This document shows positions 17,255 to 43,948 of a DNA stretch of 64,000 bases, in pieces. Below the pieces are notes generated by a model that was given only the letters and a program-made list of their open reading frames with translations, made no database searches and was not told where the DNA came from. A program made the position numbers and the translations under genes. The DNA comes from a virus. The DNA lies in the IMG/VR virus record IMGVR_UViG_3300042553_000685; one strand, given 5' to 3'. How positions within the stretch are numbered: the first letter of the stretch is position 1; every line of letters starts with the position of its first letter.

Positions 17255-18301
17255 ATGACTTCTATTAATTTTTACGAAAGAACGGCGCTTATCAAGCGTA
17301 TCGAAAACAATCTCAATAAAATTAACCAAAGATATTTTGACAAAAGCCACGTGATATTATCAGTGACTGATAACGGTGATTACCTCACTGTTAAAAAACA
17401 AGGTGTTTACTTAGCAGATTATGACACTCAAAAGCTTTTTGACGCTCTAGAAAATTTTATTGAAGAAGTTCGGGAGCTTCTTAGTTTTCCTTACGACCTA
17501 TGGGACTATTTAGATTATTGCAGGTACACGCCAGAAGATCAAAACTCTGACAACTTAAGCAAATTAGTTGAGGAACTAGAAACAAAAAATGAAATTCTGG
17601 AGAAAAAAAATCAAGAATTAGAACAGAGCAAAGAATACAACGAAGCATGGATTGACAACTTAAAACAAAAGGTTCACGATTTAGAATCCTCAGTTTGGCT
17701 ACTGCAACAGGAAAATAAGCGACTAAAAAATCAATCAGAGTTAGGAGTAAAAATGACAATTACAATGGTAAAGATACCAGCAAGTCAAGAAATTAAAAGT
17801 TTTAGAATTGGCAAATATCCAGTGACTCAGGAACAGTATCAGGCGGTAATGGGAGTTAATCCTTCCCATTTTCAAGGCAATCCTCAGAATCCAGTGGAAA
17901 GTGTTAGTTATGATGATGCTCAAGCTTTTTGTGAAAAACTAAGTCAGATAACAGGGAAAAATTATCGCTTACCCACAGTATCAGAATGGGAGTATGCCTG
18001 TCGAGCAGGTACAGTTACTGGGTATTATTTCGGAGATGATTATCATCAGTTAAGAGATTACGCTTGGTATTTTGATAATTCTCAGGGAACAACCCATCCT
18101 GTAGGATTAAAGCTACCCAATGCCTGGGGACTGTACGATATGCACGGTAACGTCTGGGAATGGTGTCAAAAGGATTTTCATCTGCGGGGCGGTTCCTGGG
18201 GCAGCCTTTCTACTTTCTGCCGTTCCGCGTTTCGCTACAGCAGCCTTCGCCGCGACGACCGCACCGTCGTTAGCGGTTTTCGGGTAGTCTGTGACAATTA
18301 G
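17255..18301 (+). CDS. coiled-coil N-domain fused to shortened FGE-sulfatase domain
   Basis: N-terminal about 165 aa rich in heptads (LVEELETKNEILEKKNQELEQSKE). C-terminal motifs GKYPVTQEQY, YRLPTVSEWEYACRAG, GLYDMHGNVWEWC, RGGSW, GFRVVC. Internal ttaggagtaaaaATG at 17741-17755. Confidence 0.8.
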   Translation: MTSINFYERTALIKRIENNLNKINQRYFDKSHVILSVTDNGDYLTVKKQGVYLADYDTQKLFDALENFIEEVRELLSFPYDLWDYLDYCRYTPEDQNSDNLSKLVEELETKNEILEKKNQELEQSKEYNEAWIDNLKQKVHDLESSVWLLQQENKRLKNQSELGVKMTITMVKIPASQEIKSFRIGKYPVTQEQYQAVMGVNPSHFQGNPQNPVESVSYDDAQAFCEKLSQITGKNYRLPTVSEWEYACRAGTVTGYYFGDDYHQLRDYAWYFDNSQGTTHPVGLKLPNAWGLYDMHGNVWEWCQKDFHLRGGSWGSLSTFCRSAFRYSSLRRDDRTVVSGFRVVCDN

Positions 18302-20004: not shown

Positions 20005-20656
20005 ATGAACATTAAACCGCAACTTAAAAGCAGTATTCGGCTATTTTTAGAAGGTTCAGAAGATGGGCTCCAGCGCCTAGTATATTTACGTCAATCGGGG
20101 GAATTGCAGGACCTTCTCAATGAACTTAAACCAGACGATATACCCGAAATTGTTGTCACAAAAGCAGAGTTCACTACAGATGCAAAAGTTAAAGTCGAGT
20201 TCACTACAGATGCAAAAGATTGAAAAAGCTGAATTAATTAAGGCAATTCGAGAAGGAACAATCGATAAGACAACTCTACAACAAGTTGATTTAAGTGGGG
20301 CTGACCTGATTAAGGTTGACCTGATTAAGGCTGATCTGAGTGGGGCGGACCTGAGAGAAGCTAAACTGAGTGAAGCTATCCTGAGTGAAGCTGACTTGAG
20401 TGAAGCTGACCTGATTAAGGCTATCCTGAGTGATGCTATCCTGAATGATGCTATCTTGAGTTGGGCTGATCTGAGTTGGGCTATCCTAAGTGGGGCTGAC
20501 TTGAATGCAGCTATTCTGATTGAGGCTAACCTAAAAGGGGCTGACCTGAGTAAAGCTAACCTGAGAGGGGCTGACATTGAAGACGCTATCTTTATCAATG
20601 CAACGGGGATCACCCCTGAACAAGAACAGGATTTAATTCGACAAGGAGTAGATTAA
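20005..20656 (+). pseudogene. pentapeptide-repeat protein gene disrupted by a 2-nt deletion
   Basis: N-terminal part (20005-20223) and repeat part (frame of 20120-20656) are in different frames. Compare gatgcaaaag--attgaaaaag here with gatgcaaaagttattgaaaaag in the intact paralog at 42291-42312. Also a 22-nt internal duplication gagttcactacagatgcaaaag. Confidence 0.7.
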
Positions 20657-23196: not shown

Positions 23197-24669
23197 ATGC
23201 CGTACATCCAAACTAATCTAAAACTCACTATTAGTCAGTATCACTATCTGCGCGAGCTAACAGCTGGTATGGATAGTGATAGTCGGCGTTTATTCATCCA
23301 CACGTTTTTGTGTCAGCGCCAGATACGTGCTAAGTCTGATTACCATGCGTGGAAGGGAGTACCGTTGCCTCGTAAGAGCTTCATTCACGTCTACTGTAGA
23401 AACTATAGCTGGGAGAGCGTAGAGGCGTTTATGACGCGGGCCCCCTACTACGCTAAGGAGGGAATCTGCTTCCGCTACCGTATTCACGAGCACATCATCG
23501 ATACCTTCATCGAGAAGGGAGAGGATTTACTATTGAGCCCCTCTCGACTACAGGATCAGTGGTTCGTTGATGTAGATGGCCGCCCGCTTCCTAAGCTCAA
23601 TAGGCCGCTTAGTAGTGCTCCGCCAACACAGGTTGACTTGGGCTATGGCATCGCGTGGCTTATTCGACAACGAGATAGGATAGAGCGTACTCGCGATAGC
23701 CTGAGTGATGCTGAGCTGGCTAGTAAACGGGCCCGCTACCTTCACAACCTGAACTGCTATCAGGGTATACTCGAGCGCGTGACTAGTATCGACTACACGA
23801 AACGTCAGGCAGAGTATTCGCAGGAGCTGACCCAGCCTCACGAGGGGCTTCGCGTGTATGAGAAGGGGGGCGGCCTCCAGGGTGCTAGTCGGAACTTCAG
23901 AGAGGTGCTGCTAATATCCAGCCCTGTCATCAACTACGATGTCGTCAAGTGCCACGCGACGATTGCCCATCATGAGATGGAGAAGCTAGGTATTAGTTCC
24001 CATCTGGATGAGATGCTATCGGGCCGTGTGAGTTCCCCTGACCCCCTACTATCCGTAGGCACTGTGAAAACAGCTGTGTTAGCAGTAATCAATGGGGCCC
24101 GACTCGTTAAGCGTCTCAGTAACCGCTTCACTATACCGCGCTTAGTACTAGAAGAACCGCTCCTAGCTGATAAGGATGTACCCACTAAGGCGCAGGCCCT
24201 CGCTAGCTTAGTAAGATACCTTAAAGGCATAGCTACCAGCATAGCGAAGTGGTCTAAACTGATTCCCAAGCATGAGAAGATAGCGGCAATATCAGCACTG
24301 TTACAACGCATAGAGGTAGACAGCCTACGAGATATCCACGACCTCGCATCTAATAACCAACACGACGGAGCCCTAATTCACAACTCCATCGACATCAACG
24401 AGGTAGAATCGGGCTACCTACTAGTGCAACCCAAACCCATCTCCACACCAGACCCAGAGGTGTCGGTTACCGTGTGCGGACACCAGATCGAGATGATACC
24501 ATTCAACGCAGAGTGTGCCAACATCGCGGACATCATCATGGGCGCGGGTACCCGGCTCCAGGCCACAACAGGATACGGAAACTGGGCCCCCACCCCCCAT
24601 AAGAATACCATTAGTAGATCAGATAGCAGCGCTGATACATCGAATCTCAGCGCTGATGATAGTAATTAA
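23197..24669 (+). CDS. large hypothetical protein
   Basis: ATG at 23197 with ggaga RBS preferred over track start 23044, which would leave no divergent promoter region; no motif recognised. Confidence 0.55.
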   Translation: MPYIQTNLKLTISQYHYLRELTAGMDSDSRRLFIHTFLCQRQIRAKSDYHAWKGVPLPRKSFIHVYCRNYSWESVEAFMTRAPYYAKEGICFRYRIHEHIIDTFIEKGEDLLLSPSRLQDQWFVDVDGRPLPKLNRPLSSAPPTQVDLGYGIAWLIRQRDRIERTRDSLSDAELASKRARYLHNLNCYQGILERVTSIDYTKRQAEYSQELTQPHEGLRVYEKGGGLQGASRNFREVLLISSPVINYDVVKCHATIAHHEMEKLGISSHLDEMLSGRVSSPDPLLSVGTVKTAVLAVINGARLVKRLSNRFTIPRLVLEEPLLADKDVPTKAQALASLVRYLKGIATSIAKWSKLIPKHEKIAAISALLQRIEVDSLRDIHDLASNNQHDGALIHNSIDINEVESGYLLVQPKPISTPDPEVSVTVCGHQIEMIPFNAECANIADIIMGAGTRLQATTGYGNWAPTPHKNTISRSDSSADTSNLSADDSN

Positions 24670-24694
24670 TACCCGTACAAGGGAGACGTGTGCC

Positions 24695-25258
24695 TTGATT
24701 CAACAATACAATAACTTGCCCATAGAATTCATAGAAAGCTATGTTAGCGCTAGGGATGTTCTCAGAGCTCTCAATCTCTCTGACGATGCTCTAGAACAGG
24801 TCACTAGTCATAACAAGCTTATGAAGAACTCAACAATGGTGCTAGAACCAGCTGGTGTATATCAGCTGGTTCTTATCAATGATGAGATAGACTTCTGGGA
24901 CTGGTACAGTGACGAAGCGCTAGCTGTTGCTAAGGAGTCGATGTTGCGTATGAGTAATTACATGAAGGCTCGGCGTATCCTCAAGGATATTATGGATGCC
25001 CCCGATGCTGTCGATAAGCTGCCCCGCATAGTTAATCAACTAATCGCAGCACGAGAGTATAAGAGTGATATATCTAAATATGATGCCGAACTGTCTGTAT
25101 GGCAGCAGATAATAGATAAGTTAAAGGAGCGCGGCCATCCTCATCCTCGACTCTTTCTATCTACGTTCCCTGATATACACGTCAATATAAAGTCTGAGGT
25201 TATGTACGAGGACGCGTTAACAGTATGCTACGAGATAGCAGGAGAATACATTGCTTGA
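24695..25258 (+). CDS. hypothetical protein with N-terminal QYNNLPIE motif
   Basis: TTG at 24695 preceded by gggaga; track start 24515 lies inside the previous gene. Confidence 0.45.
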   Translation: MIQQYNNLPIEFIESYVSARDVLRALNLSDDALEQVTSHNKLMKNSTMVLEPAGVYQLVLINDEIDFWDWYSDEALAVAKESMLRMSNYMKARRILKDIMDAPDAVDKLPRIVNQLIAAREYKSDISKYDAELSVWQQIIDKLKERGHPHPRLFLSTFPDIHVNIKSEVMYEDALTVCYEIAGEYIA

Positions 25259-25742
25259 GACTGTATTGGCGCTGCCCGCCATTAGACAAGATAGAACAGC
25301 GTTACCCTTTGTCTTCCCAGAGTTATCCCTCTATACTCTCCTGAGTATAGAAGATGTCATTCCTGACATCACTATTAACGTAGTGGCTACTAGTCCGTGG
25401 GCCCAGGGCACACACTATGGCACTATGTATTGGACTGTTCTAGTAGTGCGTTATCAGAACAGTCCCTTCTTAGTAGTGGGCCGTCGTTACGTGACAGATG
25501 GGCTTAACCCTAACGAAACGGCCCTCCGCTACGTAATAGACCAGGACCTCTATCGTACGGCTATCAACTACGCACTACAGCAGGAGACAGAGGAGGTAGT
25601 CTTTACTAATAAGGAGCGGCCCCTCGATAAAGAGAAGGCCCAGGCCTTTCATCGCATCGGGAGTGAGATACGCTTTATAGAGGCTGATGCCCTCAGCTGC
25701 ACTATTGGGGACATCAATACATTACTTGATATATTATTATGA
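25251..25742 (+). CDS. hypothetical protein, probably the 5' part of a gene split by cassette insertion
   Basis: 163-aa ORF whose last about 55 nt are imperfectly repeated at 26677-26720. Confidence 0.5.
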   Translation: MLETVLALPAIRQDRTALPFVFPELSLYTLLSIEDVIPDITINVVATSPWAQGTHYGTMYWTVLVVRYQNSPFLVVGRRYVTDGLNPNETALRYVIDQDLYRTAINYALQQETEEVVFTNKERPLDKEKAQAFHRIGSEIRFIEADALSCTIGDINTLLDILL

Positions 25743-26626
25743 AACATTTAGTTAATCCAGATTCAGTTAAACCGTTGCAAAAGTTAGAATTGTTATCATT
25801 TAACTTTGAGGTGGTGCAAGTAAATGAGAAGGGTGAGCAAATTAACAAAGAGTCAAAGCAGTCCCAATATTTCAGCCAAGATTTAGACAACGACATCACC
25901 TTAGAAATGGTTGCCATCCCAGAGGGAACTTTCCTGATGGGTTCACCACAAGACGAAAAAGATAGTTACGATGATGAACGTCCTCAACATGAGGTTAACG
26001 TCCCCACCTTTTTCATGGGCAAGTATCCCATCACCCAAACACAGTGGAGAGCGATTGCCGCAACCGCTAAAATAGACATCGACCTAGAGACAAACCCTTC
26101 TGAATTCAAAGGGGATGAGCTACCCGTAGAAAGTGTCAACTGGTATCAAGCAACGGAATTTTGTAAACGACTATCAAGAGAAACAAAACGGGAGTATCGA
26201 CTACCGAGTGAGGCGGAATGGGAGTACGCTTGTCGTGCTGGAACCACCACCCCATTTTACTTTGGGGAAACCATTACGGGGGAATTGGCTAACTACAATA
26301 CTAACAAAACCTACGTCGAGGAATATCGAAACGAAACAACTCCCGTGGGACAATTTCCCCCAAACGCTTTTGGACTGTACGATATGTACGGCAATGTCTG
26401 GGAATGGTGCGCCGATACTTGGCACGATAACTATGACGGGGCGCCGACGGATGGCAGTGCTTGGATAGAAAATGGGGATGATAATCGTTCTCCTCTGCGG
26501 GGCGGGGCTTGGTACACCTTTCCGTATCGCTGCCGTTCTGCTCACCGCAACATCGACGCCCGCCGCTACAGCCGCAGCTTCCTTTACGGTTTTCGGGTGG
26601 TGTGCAGTGCTGAAAGGACTCTGTAG
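25739..26626 (+). CDS. FGE-sulfatase (SUMF1-like) domain protein
   Basis: EGTFLMGSP, HEVNVPTFFMGKYPITQTQW, YRLPSEAEWEYACRAG, GLYDMYGNVWEWC, RGGAW, GFRVVC; long near-identical nucleotide stretches with 1740-2750. Confidence 0.85.
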   Translation: MKHLVNPDSVKPLQKLELLSFNFEVVQVNEKGEQINKESKQSQYFSQDLDNDITLEMVAIPEGTFLMGSPQDEKDSYDDERPQHEVNVPTFFMGKYPITQTQWRAIAATAKIDIDLETNPSEFKGDELPVESVNWYQATEFCKRLSRETKREYRLPSEAEWEYACRAGTTTPFYFGETITGELANYNTNKTYVEEYRNETTPVGQFPPNAFGLYDMYGNVWEWCADTWHDNYDGAPTDGSAWIENGDDNRSPLRGGAWYTFPYRCRSAHRNIDARRYSRSFLYGFRVVCSAERTL

Positions 26627-26677
26627 CAAAAAGGAATTCAACTTAGTGCTAGCAGACTTGCAAAAATTAGGTGGCCG

Positions 26678-26899
26678 ATGCCCTCAGCTGCGCCACTGAT
26701 ACTTGATTTGTTAGATATGCAAACTGTGATTAAAGCCATGCAAGAAATATACCATAGGTATCCAGATATAGAGCCTCGTATTAAGAAGAGCGACTATGCT
26801 ATGTTATCTTATATATTGTGTGTAATTATGTACAATGTAGATGATGTTCCTAGACATATTGGTAACTATCTAAGGAGTTTACGTTATACAGCAGATTGA
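26678..26899 (+). CDS. hypothetical protein, probable 3' remainder of the split gene
   Basis: 73-aa ORF starting inside the right copy of the direct repeat. Confidence 0.4.
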   Translation: MPSAAPLILDLLDMQTVIKAMQEIYHRYPDIEPRIKKSDYAMLSYILCVIMYNVDDVPRHIGNYLRSLRYTAD

Positions 26900-26995
26900 C
26901 CAATTATTTACTTTGAATGTAGGGGTTATATATACGTTTAATATTGCAAGTGAACTATTCGCTTTGCGTTCTTATATATGCCTGTCTATATCATA

Positions 26996-27064
26996 TAACC
27001 TCTAGCAATCAATGATTAAGTCGACCTTCAATCCGTTAGCTTAATCATTGATTGCTAGAGGTTA
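26996..27064. repeat. long perfect inverted repeat
   Basis: 25-bp arms taacctctagcaatcaatgattaag / cttaatcattgattgctagaggtta separated by 19 nt. Confidence 0.85.
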
Positions 27065-27166
27065 ACTGTGCAGTCAGCCGGGGGGCGTTAGTCAAATTAA
27101 TATTAACCTCACTATCAAACAACTTTCTAGGGTACACAAGATTAATCACACAATTGGAGTATAGCC

Positions 27167-28318
27167 ATGATTAACATGAAGGCTCACACCGTATATATGG
27201 TCGTGAGGCCATATTCACAAAAGAAGAAGATATTAATGAGGGCCGCTCAGGAAGTAGGGGCCCTTTATGTAGAGAGCCCTCATCTACTAGAGAATACGAT
27301 ATCGTATCCTAGCTCTCTCTCAGCGCACCACGTGCTAGTAGAAATTAAGAATCAAGAAGAGGCCGATCAGGTTATAATGATGGCGGGCTGCCATCACTAC
27401 GGCGTAGGAGAAATACTATTCAATGCCGAGAGCAGCGTAGGAGCTGAGCTCAGTCATCTTATAGAACGGCAGGAAGATATAGCGCTTAGTGTAGAGCAAG
27501 TGCCTCACTACACTATGAATGATGAGGCCCTAGTAGTAGGGGATATTCATGGTTGTTACGGCCATCTGCGTGCGCTACTTAGAAAGGCGGGCTTCTTATT
27601 TGCAGGGGATGAGATTACTCATTACCCCATGCAATTAGTGCTCAATGGAGACCTAGTGAATAAGGGCCCCAGCTCTGCTGACGTTATTAGATTCGTGTAC
27701 TCTAACCTAGGTCACCCTGACTTCAAGGTCGTACTAGGTAATCACGAGCTCTATATTATGCAGCACATAGATGATGAGAAGCCTATTAGTCGCTACTTCG
27801 ATTATCTCACTACAGTTAATAGTAATCGCATGCAGCGTAATATGTTCACTGAGATATATAGGAAGAGTGTGCCCTACCTCGTATCCCATAGTCGTACCTC
27901 TGCTGTTCACCACTCTCCTTGCGACTATAAGTATGTAGGTAAGTCTGACCCTATCTCTATACAGAAGCAGATTCACCTACCCAGTATTCGAGGTCAGGCC
28001 AATAAGCAGAATACCAGCGTAGATGAAATACTATATCCGTACTTCAATGGCCAGCCGAACTGGCCATTAGTTGTTAATGGTCATGTCACTACTAAGCACC
28101 CGCTACTAATTAATAACCGCGCTATGATTGATACAGGCGCCTTCCTAGGCTGTTATCTAACAGCAGCTCATGTCATGGGCTCTACCTGTCAATTCATATC
28201 CACAGAGAATGTGAACTCCGCGCGTAATACTATGCGCCTTAATCCCATTGCGTCTGCAATACAGGATGCAAGTAGCGTTAGAAGAAACGTGCCTCATTTG
28301 GTTAAGGCTTCAGCCTAG
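27167..28318 (+). CDS. PPP-family metallophosphatase (lambda phosphatase / ApaH-like) with extra N-domain
   Basis: VVGDIHGCYGHL, LNGDLVNKGP, VLGNHE motifs after an N-terminal extension of about 130 aa. Confidence 0.8.
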   Translation: MINMKAHTVYMVVRPYSQKKKILMRAAQEVGALYVESPHLLENTISYPSSLSAHHVLVEIKNQEEADQVIMMAGCHHYGVGEILFNAESSVGAELSHLIERQEDIALSVEQVPHYTMNDEALVVGDIHGCYGHLRALLRKAGFLFAGDEITHYPMQLVLNGDLVNKGPSSADVIRFVYSNLGHPDFKVVLGNHELYIMQHIDDEKPISRYFDYLTTVNSNRMQRNMFTEIYRKSVPYLVSHSRTSAVHHSPCDYKYVGKSDPISIQKQIHLPSIRGQANKQNTSVDEILYPYFNGQPNWPLVVNGHVTTKHPLLINNRAMIDTGAFLGCYLTAAHVMGSTCQFISTENVNSARNTMRLNPIASAIQDASSVRRNVPHLVKASA

Positions 28319-41123: not shown

Positions 41124-41537
41124 ATGGAACTCAATATCATTATTGGTGCTCTCGTTGGTCGGTACCGCTTTCCCTCTGTTAGCGGTGACCTCACGCTTGA
41201 AGATTTATTCTGCCTTAACCTCAGGTCTAGATCAGCCAATACACCCTCTCTTAATAATGTTGCTATTGAGCTTAACAAGCGTATCATAGCCTGCGGTGGC
41301 GTAGACTTCGTCGATGATAGCAACGAGATTATTATCTTACAAAGAAAGCTCGACATAGTCAAATTTGTCATTGCTCATGTTAAGAATCGTGCTGAGGCCA
41401 CTAAGCAGGCTCTCGCTAGAGAAGAGAATCGGCAGAACTTACTGGCCCTCATTGAGCGTAAGAAGAATGATCTCCTCGCTGAAGAGAGTATCGAAGAATT
41501 AGAGCAGCGCCTCGCTGCCCTACAGAAGCCAAAGTAA
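41124..41537 (+). CDS. hypothetical protein with coiled-coil C-terminus
   Basis: 137-aa ORF. Confidence 0.5.
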   Translation: MELNIIIGALVGRYRFPSVSGDLTLEDLFCLNLRSRSANTPSLNNVAIELNKRIIACGGVDFVDDSNEIIILQRKLDIVKFVIAHVKNRAEATKQALAREENRQNLLALIERKKNDLLAEESIEELEQRLAALQKPK

Positions 41538-41547
41538 TAGCTAAAGG

Positions 41548-41570
41548 ATGGGGTTTCAGCCCCATTTTTC
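41548..41570 (+). terminator. rho-independent terminator candidate
   Basis: atgggg/ccccat stem, 6-nt loop, ttttt. Confidence 0.55.
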
Positions 41571-41572
41571 TG

Positions 41573-41974
41573 ATGATTAACGACAAACCACACTGGTACA
41601 CAACAGAGTACCTCAACAGATTTAATATTCAACTACTAACAGAGTCCGATAAGTCCGAGGCAGAAGAAGATACGGTCATCTTCCACGGACCCTTTAAGAC
41701 AGTAGAAGAAGCTATAGAGTTTGAGAAAGAAGTGCCTTATTGTACTTGGACTTGGGAGGAAGAGGGGACGACTTGGGAGGAAGAAGGGGCTTGGAATACC
41801 TCATGTGCCAACCAGTTTGTCGTTAACAACGGCACCCCTTCAGAGAACGGTATGGTTTACTGTTGTTACTGCGGTCGAAAGCTAAAGGAGGCCCGCCAGA
41901 CGTCTGGAGGAGAGTGGTCTGAAGAAGATGACAATAACATTCACCTAGCTTTAAAGTTACTAACCAACACCTAG
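41573..41974 (+). CDS. hypothetical Trp/Glu/Cys-rich protein (inserted cassette)
   Basis: 133-aa ORF flanked by a 38-nt imperfect direct repeat. Confidence 0.45.
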   Translation: MINDKPHWYTTEYLNRFNIQLLTESDKSEAEEDTVIFHGPFKTVEEAIEFEKEVPYCTWTWEEEGTTWEEEGAWNTSCANQFVVNNGTPSENGMVYCCYCGRKLKEARQTSGGEWSEEDDNNIHLALKLLTNT

Positions 41975-42009
41975 AGTAGCGCCTCGCTGCCCTATAGAAG
42001 CCAAGGTAA
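41972..42009. repeat. right copy of 38-nt direct repeat (left copy 41500-41537)
   Basis: tagagYagcgcctcgctgccctaYagaagccaaRgtaa, 35/38 identical; the left copy is the 3' end of ORF 41124-41537. Confidence 0.85.
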
Positions 42010-42155: not shown

Positions 42156-43112
42156 ATGAAACTTAAAGGCAGTATTCGGTTATTTTTAGAAGGTTCAGAA
42201 GATGGATTCCAGCACCTAACAGATTTACATCAATCAGGGGAATTGCAGGCCCTCCTCAATGAACTTAAATCAGGAGTCGAGTTCACTACAGATGCAAAAG
42301 TTATTGAAAAAGTCGAATTAATTAAGGCAATTCGAGAAGGAACAATAGATAAAACAACTCTACAACAAGTTAATTTGAGTGGGGCTGATCTGAGTGGGGC
42401 TGACCTGAGTGAGGCTGACCTGAGTGGAGCTTTCCTGAGAGAGGCTAACCTAAGTGGGGTTAACCTGAGTGGGGCTTACCTGAGTAGGGCTACTCTAAGT
42501 GGGGCTAACCTGAGTGGGGTTAACCTGAGTGGGGCTAACCTGAGTGGGGCTTACCTGAGTAAAGCTGACCTGAGTGGGGCTTACCTGAGTAAAGCTGACC
42601 TGAGGGGGGCTTTCCTAAGGGGGACTAACTTGAGAGAGGCTACTTTGAGTGAGGCTGACCTGAGTGGGGCTTGCCTGAGTGGGGCTGATCTGAGTGAGGC
42701 TTGCCTGAGTGGGGCTGATCTGAGTGAGGCTGACCTGAAGGGGGCTTTCCTAAGGGGGACTTACCTGAGAGAGGCTAACCTGAGTGGGGCTAACCTGAGT
42801 GGGGCTTGCCTGAGTGGGGCTGATCTGAGTGAGGCTTGCCTGAGTGGGGCTGATCTGAGTGAGGCTGACCTGAAGGGGGCTTTCCTAAGGGGGACTTACC
42901 TGAGAGAGGCTAACCTGAGTGGGGCTAACCTGAGTGGGGCTATTCTGAGTGGGGCTATTCTGAGAGGGGCTATCCTGAGAGAGGCTAACCTGAGAAGGGC
43001 TAACCTGAGAAGGGCTAACGTTAAAAACGCTATTTTTCCCGATGCAACGGGTATCACCCCTGAACAAAAACAGGATTTAATTCGACGAGGGGCAATTTTT
43101 GCAGAGATTTAA
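42156..43112 (+). CDS. pentapeptide-repeat protein
   Basis: About 50 consecutive A(D/N)LSG-type pentapeptides; N-domain SIRLFLEGSEDG..SGELQ.LLNEL shared with pseudogene 20005-20656; perfect 135-bp tandem duplication 42669-42803 / 42804-42938. Confidence 0.85.
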   Translation: MKLKGSIRLFLEGSEDGFQHLTDLHQSGELQALLNELKSGVEFTTDAKVIEKVELIKAIREGTIDKTTLQQVNLSGADLSGADLSEADLSGAFLREANLSGVNLSGAYLSRATLSGANLSGVNLSGANLSGAYLSKADLSGAYLSKADLRGAFLRGTNLREATLSEADLSGACLSGADLSEACLSGADLSEADLKGAFLRGTYLREANLSGANLSGACLSGADLSEACLSGADLSEADLKGAFLRGTYLREANLSGANLSGAILSGAILRGAILREANLRRANLRRANVKNAIFPDATGITPEQKQDLIRRGAIFAEI

Positions 43113-43222: not shown

Positions 43223-43351
43223 CCAACGGTCGCCCCCATACTTAATGTCTCTCTAAGTTTTATTGGTAAATGGAAAACTCAGTTTGAAGACCGAGGTATC
43301 CCTAGATTAAAATTATCATATCAAGGAACATCATGGAAAATTTGGGTCTGA
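43223..43351 (+). pseudogene. fragment of transposase HTH domain (IS630-like, tentative)
   Basis: Reads PTVAPILNVSLSFIGKWKTQFEDRGIPRLKLSYQGTSW*, the pattern of a transposase N-terminal HTH; bounded by stops; 23-nt match (22/23) to 62895-62917. Confidence 0.4.
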
Positions 43352-43911
43352 AACCCCGTCCGTTTTACGGCGGTGAGGATGTCAAGGAAGAATTAAAGGC
43401 AATTTATAATGACAGGGTTGTATACGGACTAACTGATAACAGTAATGTGTATATCGACGCTGTGTCCTTAAAGGAGGTGCTTGATTGTAGTATTTACTCA
43501 GAGCTCATGAAGTCAAATAGACTATGGGTATCAGCAGATGATCTAGCTGTAATTCTAGAGGATAATAATTGCCCTACGAATGATTTCGAGAAGTGGTTGA
43601 TATCTATCCGCAACATGGACTTTGAAACCTACACATTAACTTACATCAATGATAAAAAGGTATACTACAGATACGAGGGGCAGGAGCCAGTATTCTCCTT
43701 AAATAGTATCGTAGCCACTCATTATAATAGTAATGTTCGTTTTACTGACTGGCGAAATGGGGATACGTATGAGTATAAGCCTGATGATAGTCGTGTGAGG
43801 TGGGTCTCTGCAGATGTAGCTCTTGAGTTGGCCCGCATGGTCGATTCTACGTTAGGCATCTGGCTGGAAGGATGTATCGGCGTTATGAGGAAAACCCCGT
43901 TTGATCTGTAG
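43333..43911 (+). CDS. hypothetical protein; N-terminus built from the TnpB-end remnant
   Basis: 192-aa ORF; first 18 codons (MENLGLKPRPFYGGEDVK) lie in the remnant. Confidence 0.45.
   Translation: MENLGLKPRPFYGGEDVKEELKAIYNDRVVYGLTDNSNVYIDAVSLKEVLDCSIYSELMKSNRLWVSADDLAVILEDNNCPTNDFEKWLISIRNMDFETYTLTYINDKKVYYRYEGQEPVFSLNSIVATHYNSNVRFTDWRNGDTYEYKPDDSRVRWVSADVALELARMVDSTLGIWLEGCIGVMRKTPFDL
43356..43386 (+). repeat. TnpB 3' end / guide-RNA stem-loop-like remnant, copy 1
   Basis: ccgtccgttttacggcggtgaggatgtcaag; same design as the stem-loop after tnpB at 38536-38568; partner copy at 43919-43948. Confidence 0.55.
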
Positions 43912-43918
43912 GGAATCG

Positions 43919-43948
43919 CCGTCCGTTTACGGCAGCGATGATATCAAG
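43919..43948 (+). repeat. TnpB 3' end / guide-RNA stem-loop-like remnant, copy 2
   Basis: ccgtccgtttacggcagcgatgatatcaag preceded by gggaatcg, about 5 differences from copy 1. Confidence 0.55.

Follow-up and report, generated by a model that had tools for sequence, protein, structure and literature searches.

Probable capture of a Microcystis gene fragment between two genes of a Ma-LMM01-type phage, and the direct repeat that surrounds it

What does it mean that two neighbouring phage genes share a repeated stretch, with another gene lying between the two copies? The question arises in the window (the whole stretch of DNA that was analysed, 64,000 nt in length), which belongs to a Ma-LMM01-type (Fukuivirus) Microcystis phage. 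The first-pass annotation described a foreign FGE-sulfatase cassette of about 0.93 kb between backbone sequences, with an imperfect direct repeat on both sides, and related phages without the cassette bear this out. In particular, positions 24500-27200 align with nine isolate records at 86-88% identity over just 62-65% of the length; the coverage is partial because the cassette is missing in all nine. The neighbouring ORFs correspond to gp030, gp029, gp028 and a metallophosphatase, and the features of the locus are listed in Table 1.

The repeat and the two backbone genes

The repeat consists of an exact 15-mer, GATGCCCTCAGCTGC, at 25686-25700 and 26677-26691; as annotated, these form a unique pair in the 64-kb window, and the motif is thus not reused at other loci within it. 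By chance, a mean of 0.04 matches is expected, and none of 100 shuffles, with up to two mismatches permitted, contained two or more. The repeat can be extended to 25682-25707 and 26673-26698 (26 nt, 85%), and a second block, TACTTGAT, is found at 25723 and 26700, with an offset of 14 nt; as a result of this shift, the shared 15-mer is in different reading frames in the two flanking ORFs. It was also rightly noted that the left copy is the 3′ end of ORF 25251-25742, and that ORF 26678-26899 starts within the right copy. The fold of the window's right repeat is not better than those of shuffled sequences (z = -0.38). Further, the 3′ end of gp028 contains a 10-bp palindrome, GATGCCCTCA-N10-TGAGGGCATC (window 25686-25715; L020:2356-2385; contig L023), which is perfect in L023 and in all three right (non-coding) copies of the type B relatives described below, and has a single mismatch in the isolates and two in each left (coding) copy that cassette-bearing phages have; its fold in the relative L020 has a z of -2.3.

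The upstream backbone gene, a gp028 homologue, has an identical TGA end in 21/21 loci compared. The downstream gene, called 28L here, is conserved everywhere in its last ~60 codons (the gp026 core), and its N-terminus differs among phages. For example, DL01 and CH01 have a 28L of 109 aa, a stop in LMM01 divides it into gp027 and gp026, and an internal part has been deleted in MaMV-DC and contig L023. The conserved gp026 core corresponds to window positions 26717-26899, and a new in-frame start at 26678 has arisen inside the right repeat.

Table 1. Features of the cassette locus and of a second repeat-flanked locus, in window coordinates
Feature	Positions	Strand	Basis or content
Backbone gene, Ma-LMM01 gp028 homologue, 163 aa, intact	25251-25742	+	93% nucleotide identity to LMM01 gp028; phrog_31619, E 1e-108
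Left copy of junction segment, 66 nt	25682-25747	+	Last 19 codons of gp028, ATGA overlap, first three 28L codons (ATGAAACAT)
FGE-sulfatase/C-type-lectin-fold ORF, 295 aa, intact	25739-26626	+	28L start codon and two codons, apparently fused to the 3′ part of a host Microcystis multidomain gene
Putative host-derived insert	25748-26674	+	Homology to host gene L142 begins right after ATGAAACAT (in L020); host homology ends at GGTGG, 26670-26674
Patch resembling host paralogues	26039-26338	+	93% to host paralogues versus 65-85% to other phage alleles (binned identities)
DGR-type variable codons (NNC pattern)	26513-26587	+	Alignment of 12 phage alleles
Conserved 3′ end of variable region with IMH-like (initiation of mutagenic homing) segment	26588-26626	+	Host variable-region type
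Host 3′ flank, 48 nt, probably carried in with the gene	26627-26674	+	Same flank after the stop of host genes L107, L110-L114 and L118
Right copy of junction segment, truncated	26673-26707	+	26 nt of gp028 3′ end, then TACTTGAT, joined to the 28L interior
Remnant of downstream backbone gene (28L; gp027/gp026)	26678-26899	+	95% nucleotide identity to LMM01 gp026
Second locus, left copy of 56-nt repeat	41482-41537	+	3′ end of ORF 41124-41537
Second locus, right copy (80%)	41954-42009	+	Past ORF 41573-41974 (LMM01 gp012 homologue)

Host counterparts of the cassette and its variable tail

The cassette ORF (25739-26626) matches the Pfam domain PF03781 over its full length (4-254 of 255 positions, E 6.5e-59), and its best matches among solved structures are PvdO and the Treponema diversity-generating-retroelement (DGR) variable protein 2y3c (TvpA), E 2e-21. 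The phage contributed the ATGA overlap at which the ORF begins; a scan of the cassette for promoter and terminator consensus sequences yields no more sites than are found in shuffled sequences, and a hairpin that follows the host genes is kept in type D relatives and absent in the window. Across 12 phage alleles, the flanks are 93-99% identical, whereas the cassette is only 75-82% identical.

All 17 of the 17 Microcystis genomes examined have 7-24 stretches each that resemble the 3′ part of the cassette, with up to 87% nucleotide identity, and some of these host loci are located on multi-megabase chromosomal contigs (for example, the 4.9-Mb contig of genome G011). Host loci L107 and L111-L114 match window positions 25792-26683 at 76-86% nucleotide identity, including 48 nt past the stop codon. 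Beyond GGTGG, the host flank continues with the hairpin, GGTGGGCAATGCCCACC, and then with more sequence. Host gene L142 (779 aa), whose sole Pfam domain is a C-terminal FGE domain, is 87% identical over 922 nt to the relative L020, with a homology that begins exactly after ATGAAACAT and in frame. As judged from the aligned sequences, the phage gene is an in-frame fusion of the first three 28L codons to the last ~310 codons of a host gene, and we infer that the transfer ran from host to phage. No donor with more than 90% identity was found among the 17 genomes, indicating either an old capture or a true donor that lies outside the sample. Directly 3′ of position 25747, the window alone among its relatives has lost 30 nt (10 codons); L016, with a cassette otherwise 99.4% identical to the window's, retains them. 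Moreover, the patch at 26039-26338 (allele nt 300-600) looks like a later gene conversion, because it lies outside the variable region. The phage also has further FGE genes at 1740-2750 and 17255-18301, whose tails are variable-region-like, and the gene at 1740-2750 has 74% nucleotide identity to the cassette along its whole length.

Within the last ~45 codons of the cassette, NNC-type codons vary between invariant blocks across the 12 phage alleles. Some Microcystis genomes contain complete DGRs, with a target gene, avd, a 352-aa RT and a template repeat. Compared with the host template repeat L123, the window's variable region differs at 18/31 adenine sites and at 9/90 other sites (Fisher p 2e-7), while the alleles of L015 and L025 differ from the host template L125 at 2/90 and 4/89 non-adenine sites, respectively; genuine host template/variable pairs have 0-3 non-adenine differences of 90. 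When an exact cognate template for the window's variable region was sought by pattern, none was returned; the templates that came up were all of the L123 / G008:C151 type, which has about four non-adenine differences in a 96-nt pattern stretch by hand count. The region ends in an IMH-like segment of the host variable-region type, which is GGGAGGACTCTGTAG in most alleles (given also as GGGAGGACTCTGTA(G/A)) and GAAAGGACTCTGTAG, with two substitutions (GAAAGG), in the window; the host template repeat has a differing IMH* form, GGGATTACTCTTGAT, and the phage alleles carry the variable-region form. RVT_1 is absent in four complete relatives (LMM01, MaMV-DC, DL01 and CH01) and in a 107-kb IMG/VR contig, and the window contains no template-like copy. 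By its pattern, though not as a sign of current retrohoming, the cassette tail therefore resembles a DGR variable region that matches host templates. The likeness to formylglycine-generating enzyme (FGE) is one of domain-level similarity, and the variable region spans the portion of the fold with which DGR proteins bind their ligand.

Two candidate elements were rejected. Isolated 130-nt host matches (query 144-276), considered as template repeats, are actually the 3′ ends of more divergent FGE genes; true template repeats adjoin the 352-aa RT genes. The host hairpin 3′ of the gene, considered as a DGR target-recognition element for which the phage palindrome had been substituted, fails because RT-adjacent host targets have a different, hairpin-less flank. 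In L015 (5380-5653), the cassette ends with the polypyrimidine 3′ flank of RT-adjacent host DGR targets, identical to L125 VR1, at the very end of the contig; the alternatives are a true recombinant between phage and host and a chimeric assembly.

Arrangements among relatives and their proposed history

Sixteen IMG/VR contigs encode gp028 and, together with the isolates, they fall into four arrangements. Type A (the isolates and L023) is an empty site. Type D (L010, L017 and L022) has a cassette whose host flank runs on for another ~170 nt, hairpin included, before 28L sets in at about its nt 100; it has no repeat. Type B (L018, L020 and L021) has the cassette, the 48-nt flank, the final 57 nt of gp028 and ATGAAA(C/T)AT for a second time, and an intact 28L of 109-112 aa. 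Type C (the window, L011-L014, L016, L019 and L025) has a truncated right copy. The type B relatives thus contain a complete second copy of the junction segment at 25682-25747, with 86-89% identity; these copies have 66 nt, start exactly at the right joint (GGTGG/CCGATG) and end exactly at the left joint (CAT/CAAAAT), and the distal 55 nt of the host flank is kept further downstream. Compared with type B, the right repeat of the window is missing ~160 nt (L020 2379-2540). Empty and filled sites differ by exactly the cassette and one repeat copy.

The cassette is present in 14/15 informative environmental contigs and in 0/9 cultured-isolate records, so that laboratory Ma-LMM01-type phages under-represent this locus and leave a gap in its sampling. 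In a tree of the left flank, types B, C and D are intermixed, and the empty-site clade is sister to the cassette-bearing contig L025 (support 100/99); the empty sites of the isolates may reflect either loss through repeat recombination or primary absence, as the tree is compatible with both. Because these are IMG/VR contigs of a multi-copy family, mis-assembly could in principle have occurred, though each type is found in at least three samples.

Other differences lie nearby. A perfect 25-nt inverted repeat within window positions 26964-27064 (inverted repeat 26996-27064) stands exactly where a block of ~820 nt is absent from the window; in type B and D relatives and in L025, this block contains a second gp026-like copy and a 123-142-aa ORF. 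L017, L018, L020-L022 and L025 have a tandem duplication of ~419 nt, which is made up of 55 nt from the distal host flank, a spacer of 50 nt and a gp026-like gene. In L025 (4633-5148), an extra insertion of ~0.5 kb in the 5′ part of the cassette has a small ORF with a PEP-CTERM-like tail and gives the FGE ORF a new N-terminus, which may resemble a HicB-type antitoxin fold.

The same architecture had been reported at two further places in the window, and one of them stands. The gene within 41482-42009 is indeed repeat-flanked (Table 1); in relatives, the repeat is 137 nt long in LMM01, and MaMV-DC has one copy and no gp012. In contrast, the match between 43350-43365 and 43913-43928 (14/16) is at chance level, as about one is expected by our own estimate in a region of 2.8 kb. 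Private duplications of a neighbour gene's 3′ end do recur in this phage group. Between these places, a variable slot at 42156-43112 holds a pentapeptide-repeat gene (318 aa, 15-nt periodicity), which is absent at that position in LMM01 and MaMV-DC and present in MaMV-CH02, and a decayed relative of this gene is found at 20120-20656.

The first-pass annotation read ORFs 25251-25742 and 26678-26899 as halves of a single ancestral gene split by the cassette, on the grounds that one repeat copy closes the first ORF, that the other copy opens the second, and that both run on into an L-L-D motif. A search for the fused gene in the cassette-free set (nine Ma-LMM01-type isolate records, including LMM01, MaMV-DC, DH01, DL01/02 and CH01/02, plus the metagenomic IMG/VR contig L023) contradicts this reading: none is fused, and gp028 and 28L are separate genes with a conserved stop and an overlapping start (ATGA) in 9/9 isolate records and in L023, which is the outcome that the annotation itself had set against its proposal. 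Together with the differing frames of the 15-mer in the two copies, and with the type B relatives that have the cassette yet keep both genes complete, this makes a split gene next to impossible. The overlap of the cassette's ATG with the upstream stop was correctly seen, but it predates the insertion, being the ancestral junction of gp028 and 28L that all cassette-free relatives share. What the repeat duplicates is a junction between genes rather than the halves of one gene, and the short LLDILL/LLDLLD resemblance, present in both ancestral genes, probably acted as microhomology for a later deletion. It is also very unlikely that the cassette arose within the phage, with the host uninvolved, as a duplicate of its own FGE paralogue (1740-2750). 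The phage does have two other FGE genes, all isolates carry the paralogue, and positions 1764-2567 are 61% identical to the cassette in amino acids and 74% in nucleotides; yet the host genes are closer (86-87% nucleotide identity), and the paralogue lacks the upstream linker and the downstream non-coding flank, to both of which the host homology extends.

Direct repeats around inserted DNA are typical of mobile elements, and this repeat could be taken as the target-site duplication or attachment site of a transposase, integrase or homing endonuclease; a dedicated cassette-capture mechanism had likewise been proposed. The locus lends no support to such a mechanism and speaks against a mobile element, which we consider highly improbable, as the cassette is a single ORF (FGE), no transposase, integrase or other recombinase gene and no terminal inverted repeats are found in or near it, the window has no shared attC/att-like site, the motif is nowhere else in the 64 kb, and a duplication of 66 nt far exceeds the target duplications of transposons, while its ends coincide with the points at which similarity to an ordinary chromosomal gene of the host stops. 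Neither a transposon or IS nor an integron or integrase cassette is thus described by these features. An unlikely, though conceivable, role for the repeats is a functional one, where homologous recombination via small circles removes and restores the cassette or exchanges it between phages, in the manner of the PeSL-flanked cassettes of T4-type phages. Such exchange fits the exact difference between empty and filled sites, the shuffling of cassette alleles and junction types over backbones, and the variable presence of the second repeat-flanked gene among relatives, but the window's right copy, down to 26 + 8 nt at 85%, is a poor substrate, and the repeat is not a motif common to other loci.

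The arrangements instead point, with good probability, to a host 3′ gene fragment that was captured between two phage genes, and to a repeat that is a scar of illegitimate recombination, later eroded by deletions. An ancestor would have copied the 3′ third of a host multidomain gene, together with the host 3′ flank, into the start of 28L; the captured part would comprise a linker and the hypermutation target of the host DGRs, the FGE/C-type-lectin domain. The left joint shows no clear microhomology; it falls, in frame, after codon 3 of 28L, so that the captured domain uses the 28L start codon and the ATGA coupling to gp028. Later, DNA from a phage genome without the interruption, running from the final 57 nt of gp028 through the ATGA into 28L, may have recombined into the host-derived flank. 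The left crossover would have used GG.C.ATGCCC, an imperfect microhomology that the host hairpin shares with the palindrome of the gp028 3′ end, and the right crossover would lie within 28L homology. 28L would be whole again after this second event, and the cassette would be enclosed by direct repeats of 66 nt; the same repeat would arise if a circular intermediate had integrated in a Campbell-type event. In the window's lineage, deletions would then have taken away the right repeat's 3′ part along with ~43 codons from the start of 28L. The ~160-nt loss is most simply explained by a 14-nt deletion and a 146-nt deletion between two T(A/G)CTTGA heptamers, which would join the gp028-derived piece to codon ~43 of 28L and create the start at 26678; ten codons would also have been lost at the left joint. 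The junction coordinates are read directly from the alignments, whereas the order D, B, C is one that we infer, with the step from D to B placed by parsimony only.

The cassette product would be a sensor-only variable ligand-binding protein with a host-type variable region and IMH, and the cassette would keep exchanging sequence with the 7-24 host paralogues per genome. A bolder and decidedly speculative extension, which we hold to be possible but doubtful, is that the phage bears a sensor-only hypervariable ligand-binding domain, captured with its cis signals for mutagenic homing, that is rewritten by host DGRs in trans and by gene conversion from host paralogues, and that acts as a decoy or dominant-negative form against putative host antigen sensors, with the repeat permitting the cassette to be shed and regained.

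Significance and comparison with known systems

What appeared as a split gene is thus probably the stepwise history of a host gene fragment's acquisition by a phage, whose putative intermediates persist in lake metagenomes, with an intact host flank, with the neighbour rebuilt by a 66-nt duplication, and with deletions. Of the three FGE genes in this phage group, one would have passed from host to phage. The capture appears to have been limited to the domain diversified by DGRs and to its homing signals, which would give an anatomical basis to the idea that host retroelements rewrite phage genes. Our literature search found no paper that joins Ma-LMM01-type phages to DGRs or to FGE/sulfatase genes.

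Mobile cassettes flanked by PeSLs were reportedly described by Arbiol et al. in 2010 from the hyperplastic regions of T4-type phages. They are similar in that single genes lie between short direct repeats in a variable phage region and are present or absent among relatives. PeSLs are a common promoter plus stem-loop motif at many loci, whereas each repeat here is a private copy of the neighbour gene's end, found at its own locus only. The 3′-end displacement scars of rhs/CDI-type orphan ends are also comparable, as they are displaced, partly decayed copies of a neighbour's end that result from recombination between variants; in contrast, no toxin/immunity logic is evident here, and the displaced piece is a 66-nt stretch of a small phage gene.

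The cassette is closer in form to phage morons and to captured host genes, such as the auxiliary genes of cyanophages (for example, nblA of Ma-LMM01). It is an extra gene between genes that are adjacent in related phages, a single host gene between neighbours, with joints of little or no homology and no recombinase. Unlike morons, it has neither a promoter nor a terminator of its own, and it is read from a phage start codon to which it is joined in frame. Of the host gene, apparently no more than the C-terminal domain was taken, and the repeat would stem from a second event, in which the damaged neighbour was rebuilt.

In its product, the cassette resembles the DGR variable proteins (TvpA of Treponema denticola, 2y3c, and cyanobacterial targets), with which it shares the fold, NNC codons in a variable region at the C-terminus, and an IMH-like end; its differences from host templates are enriched at adenines, though not confined to them. 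DGR targets, including remote targets, have been described in cyanobacteria and multicellular bacteria (PMC7517822, PMC10907252). The cassette differs from the host's DGR proteins in having no N-terminal signalling or effector part, and it differs from DGR systems at large in how its components are divided: the variable region is carried by phages whose relatives are without RT, avd and template repeat, and the matching templates are found in the host.
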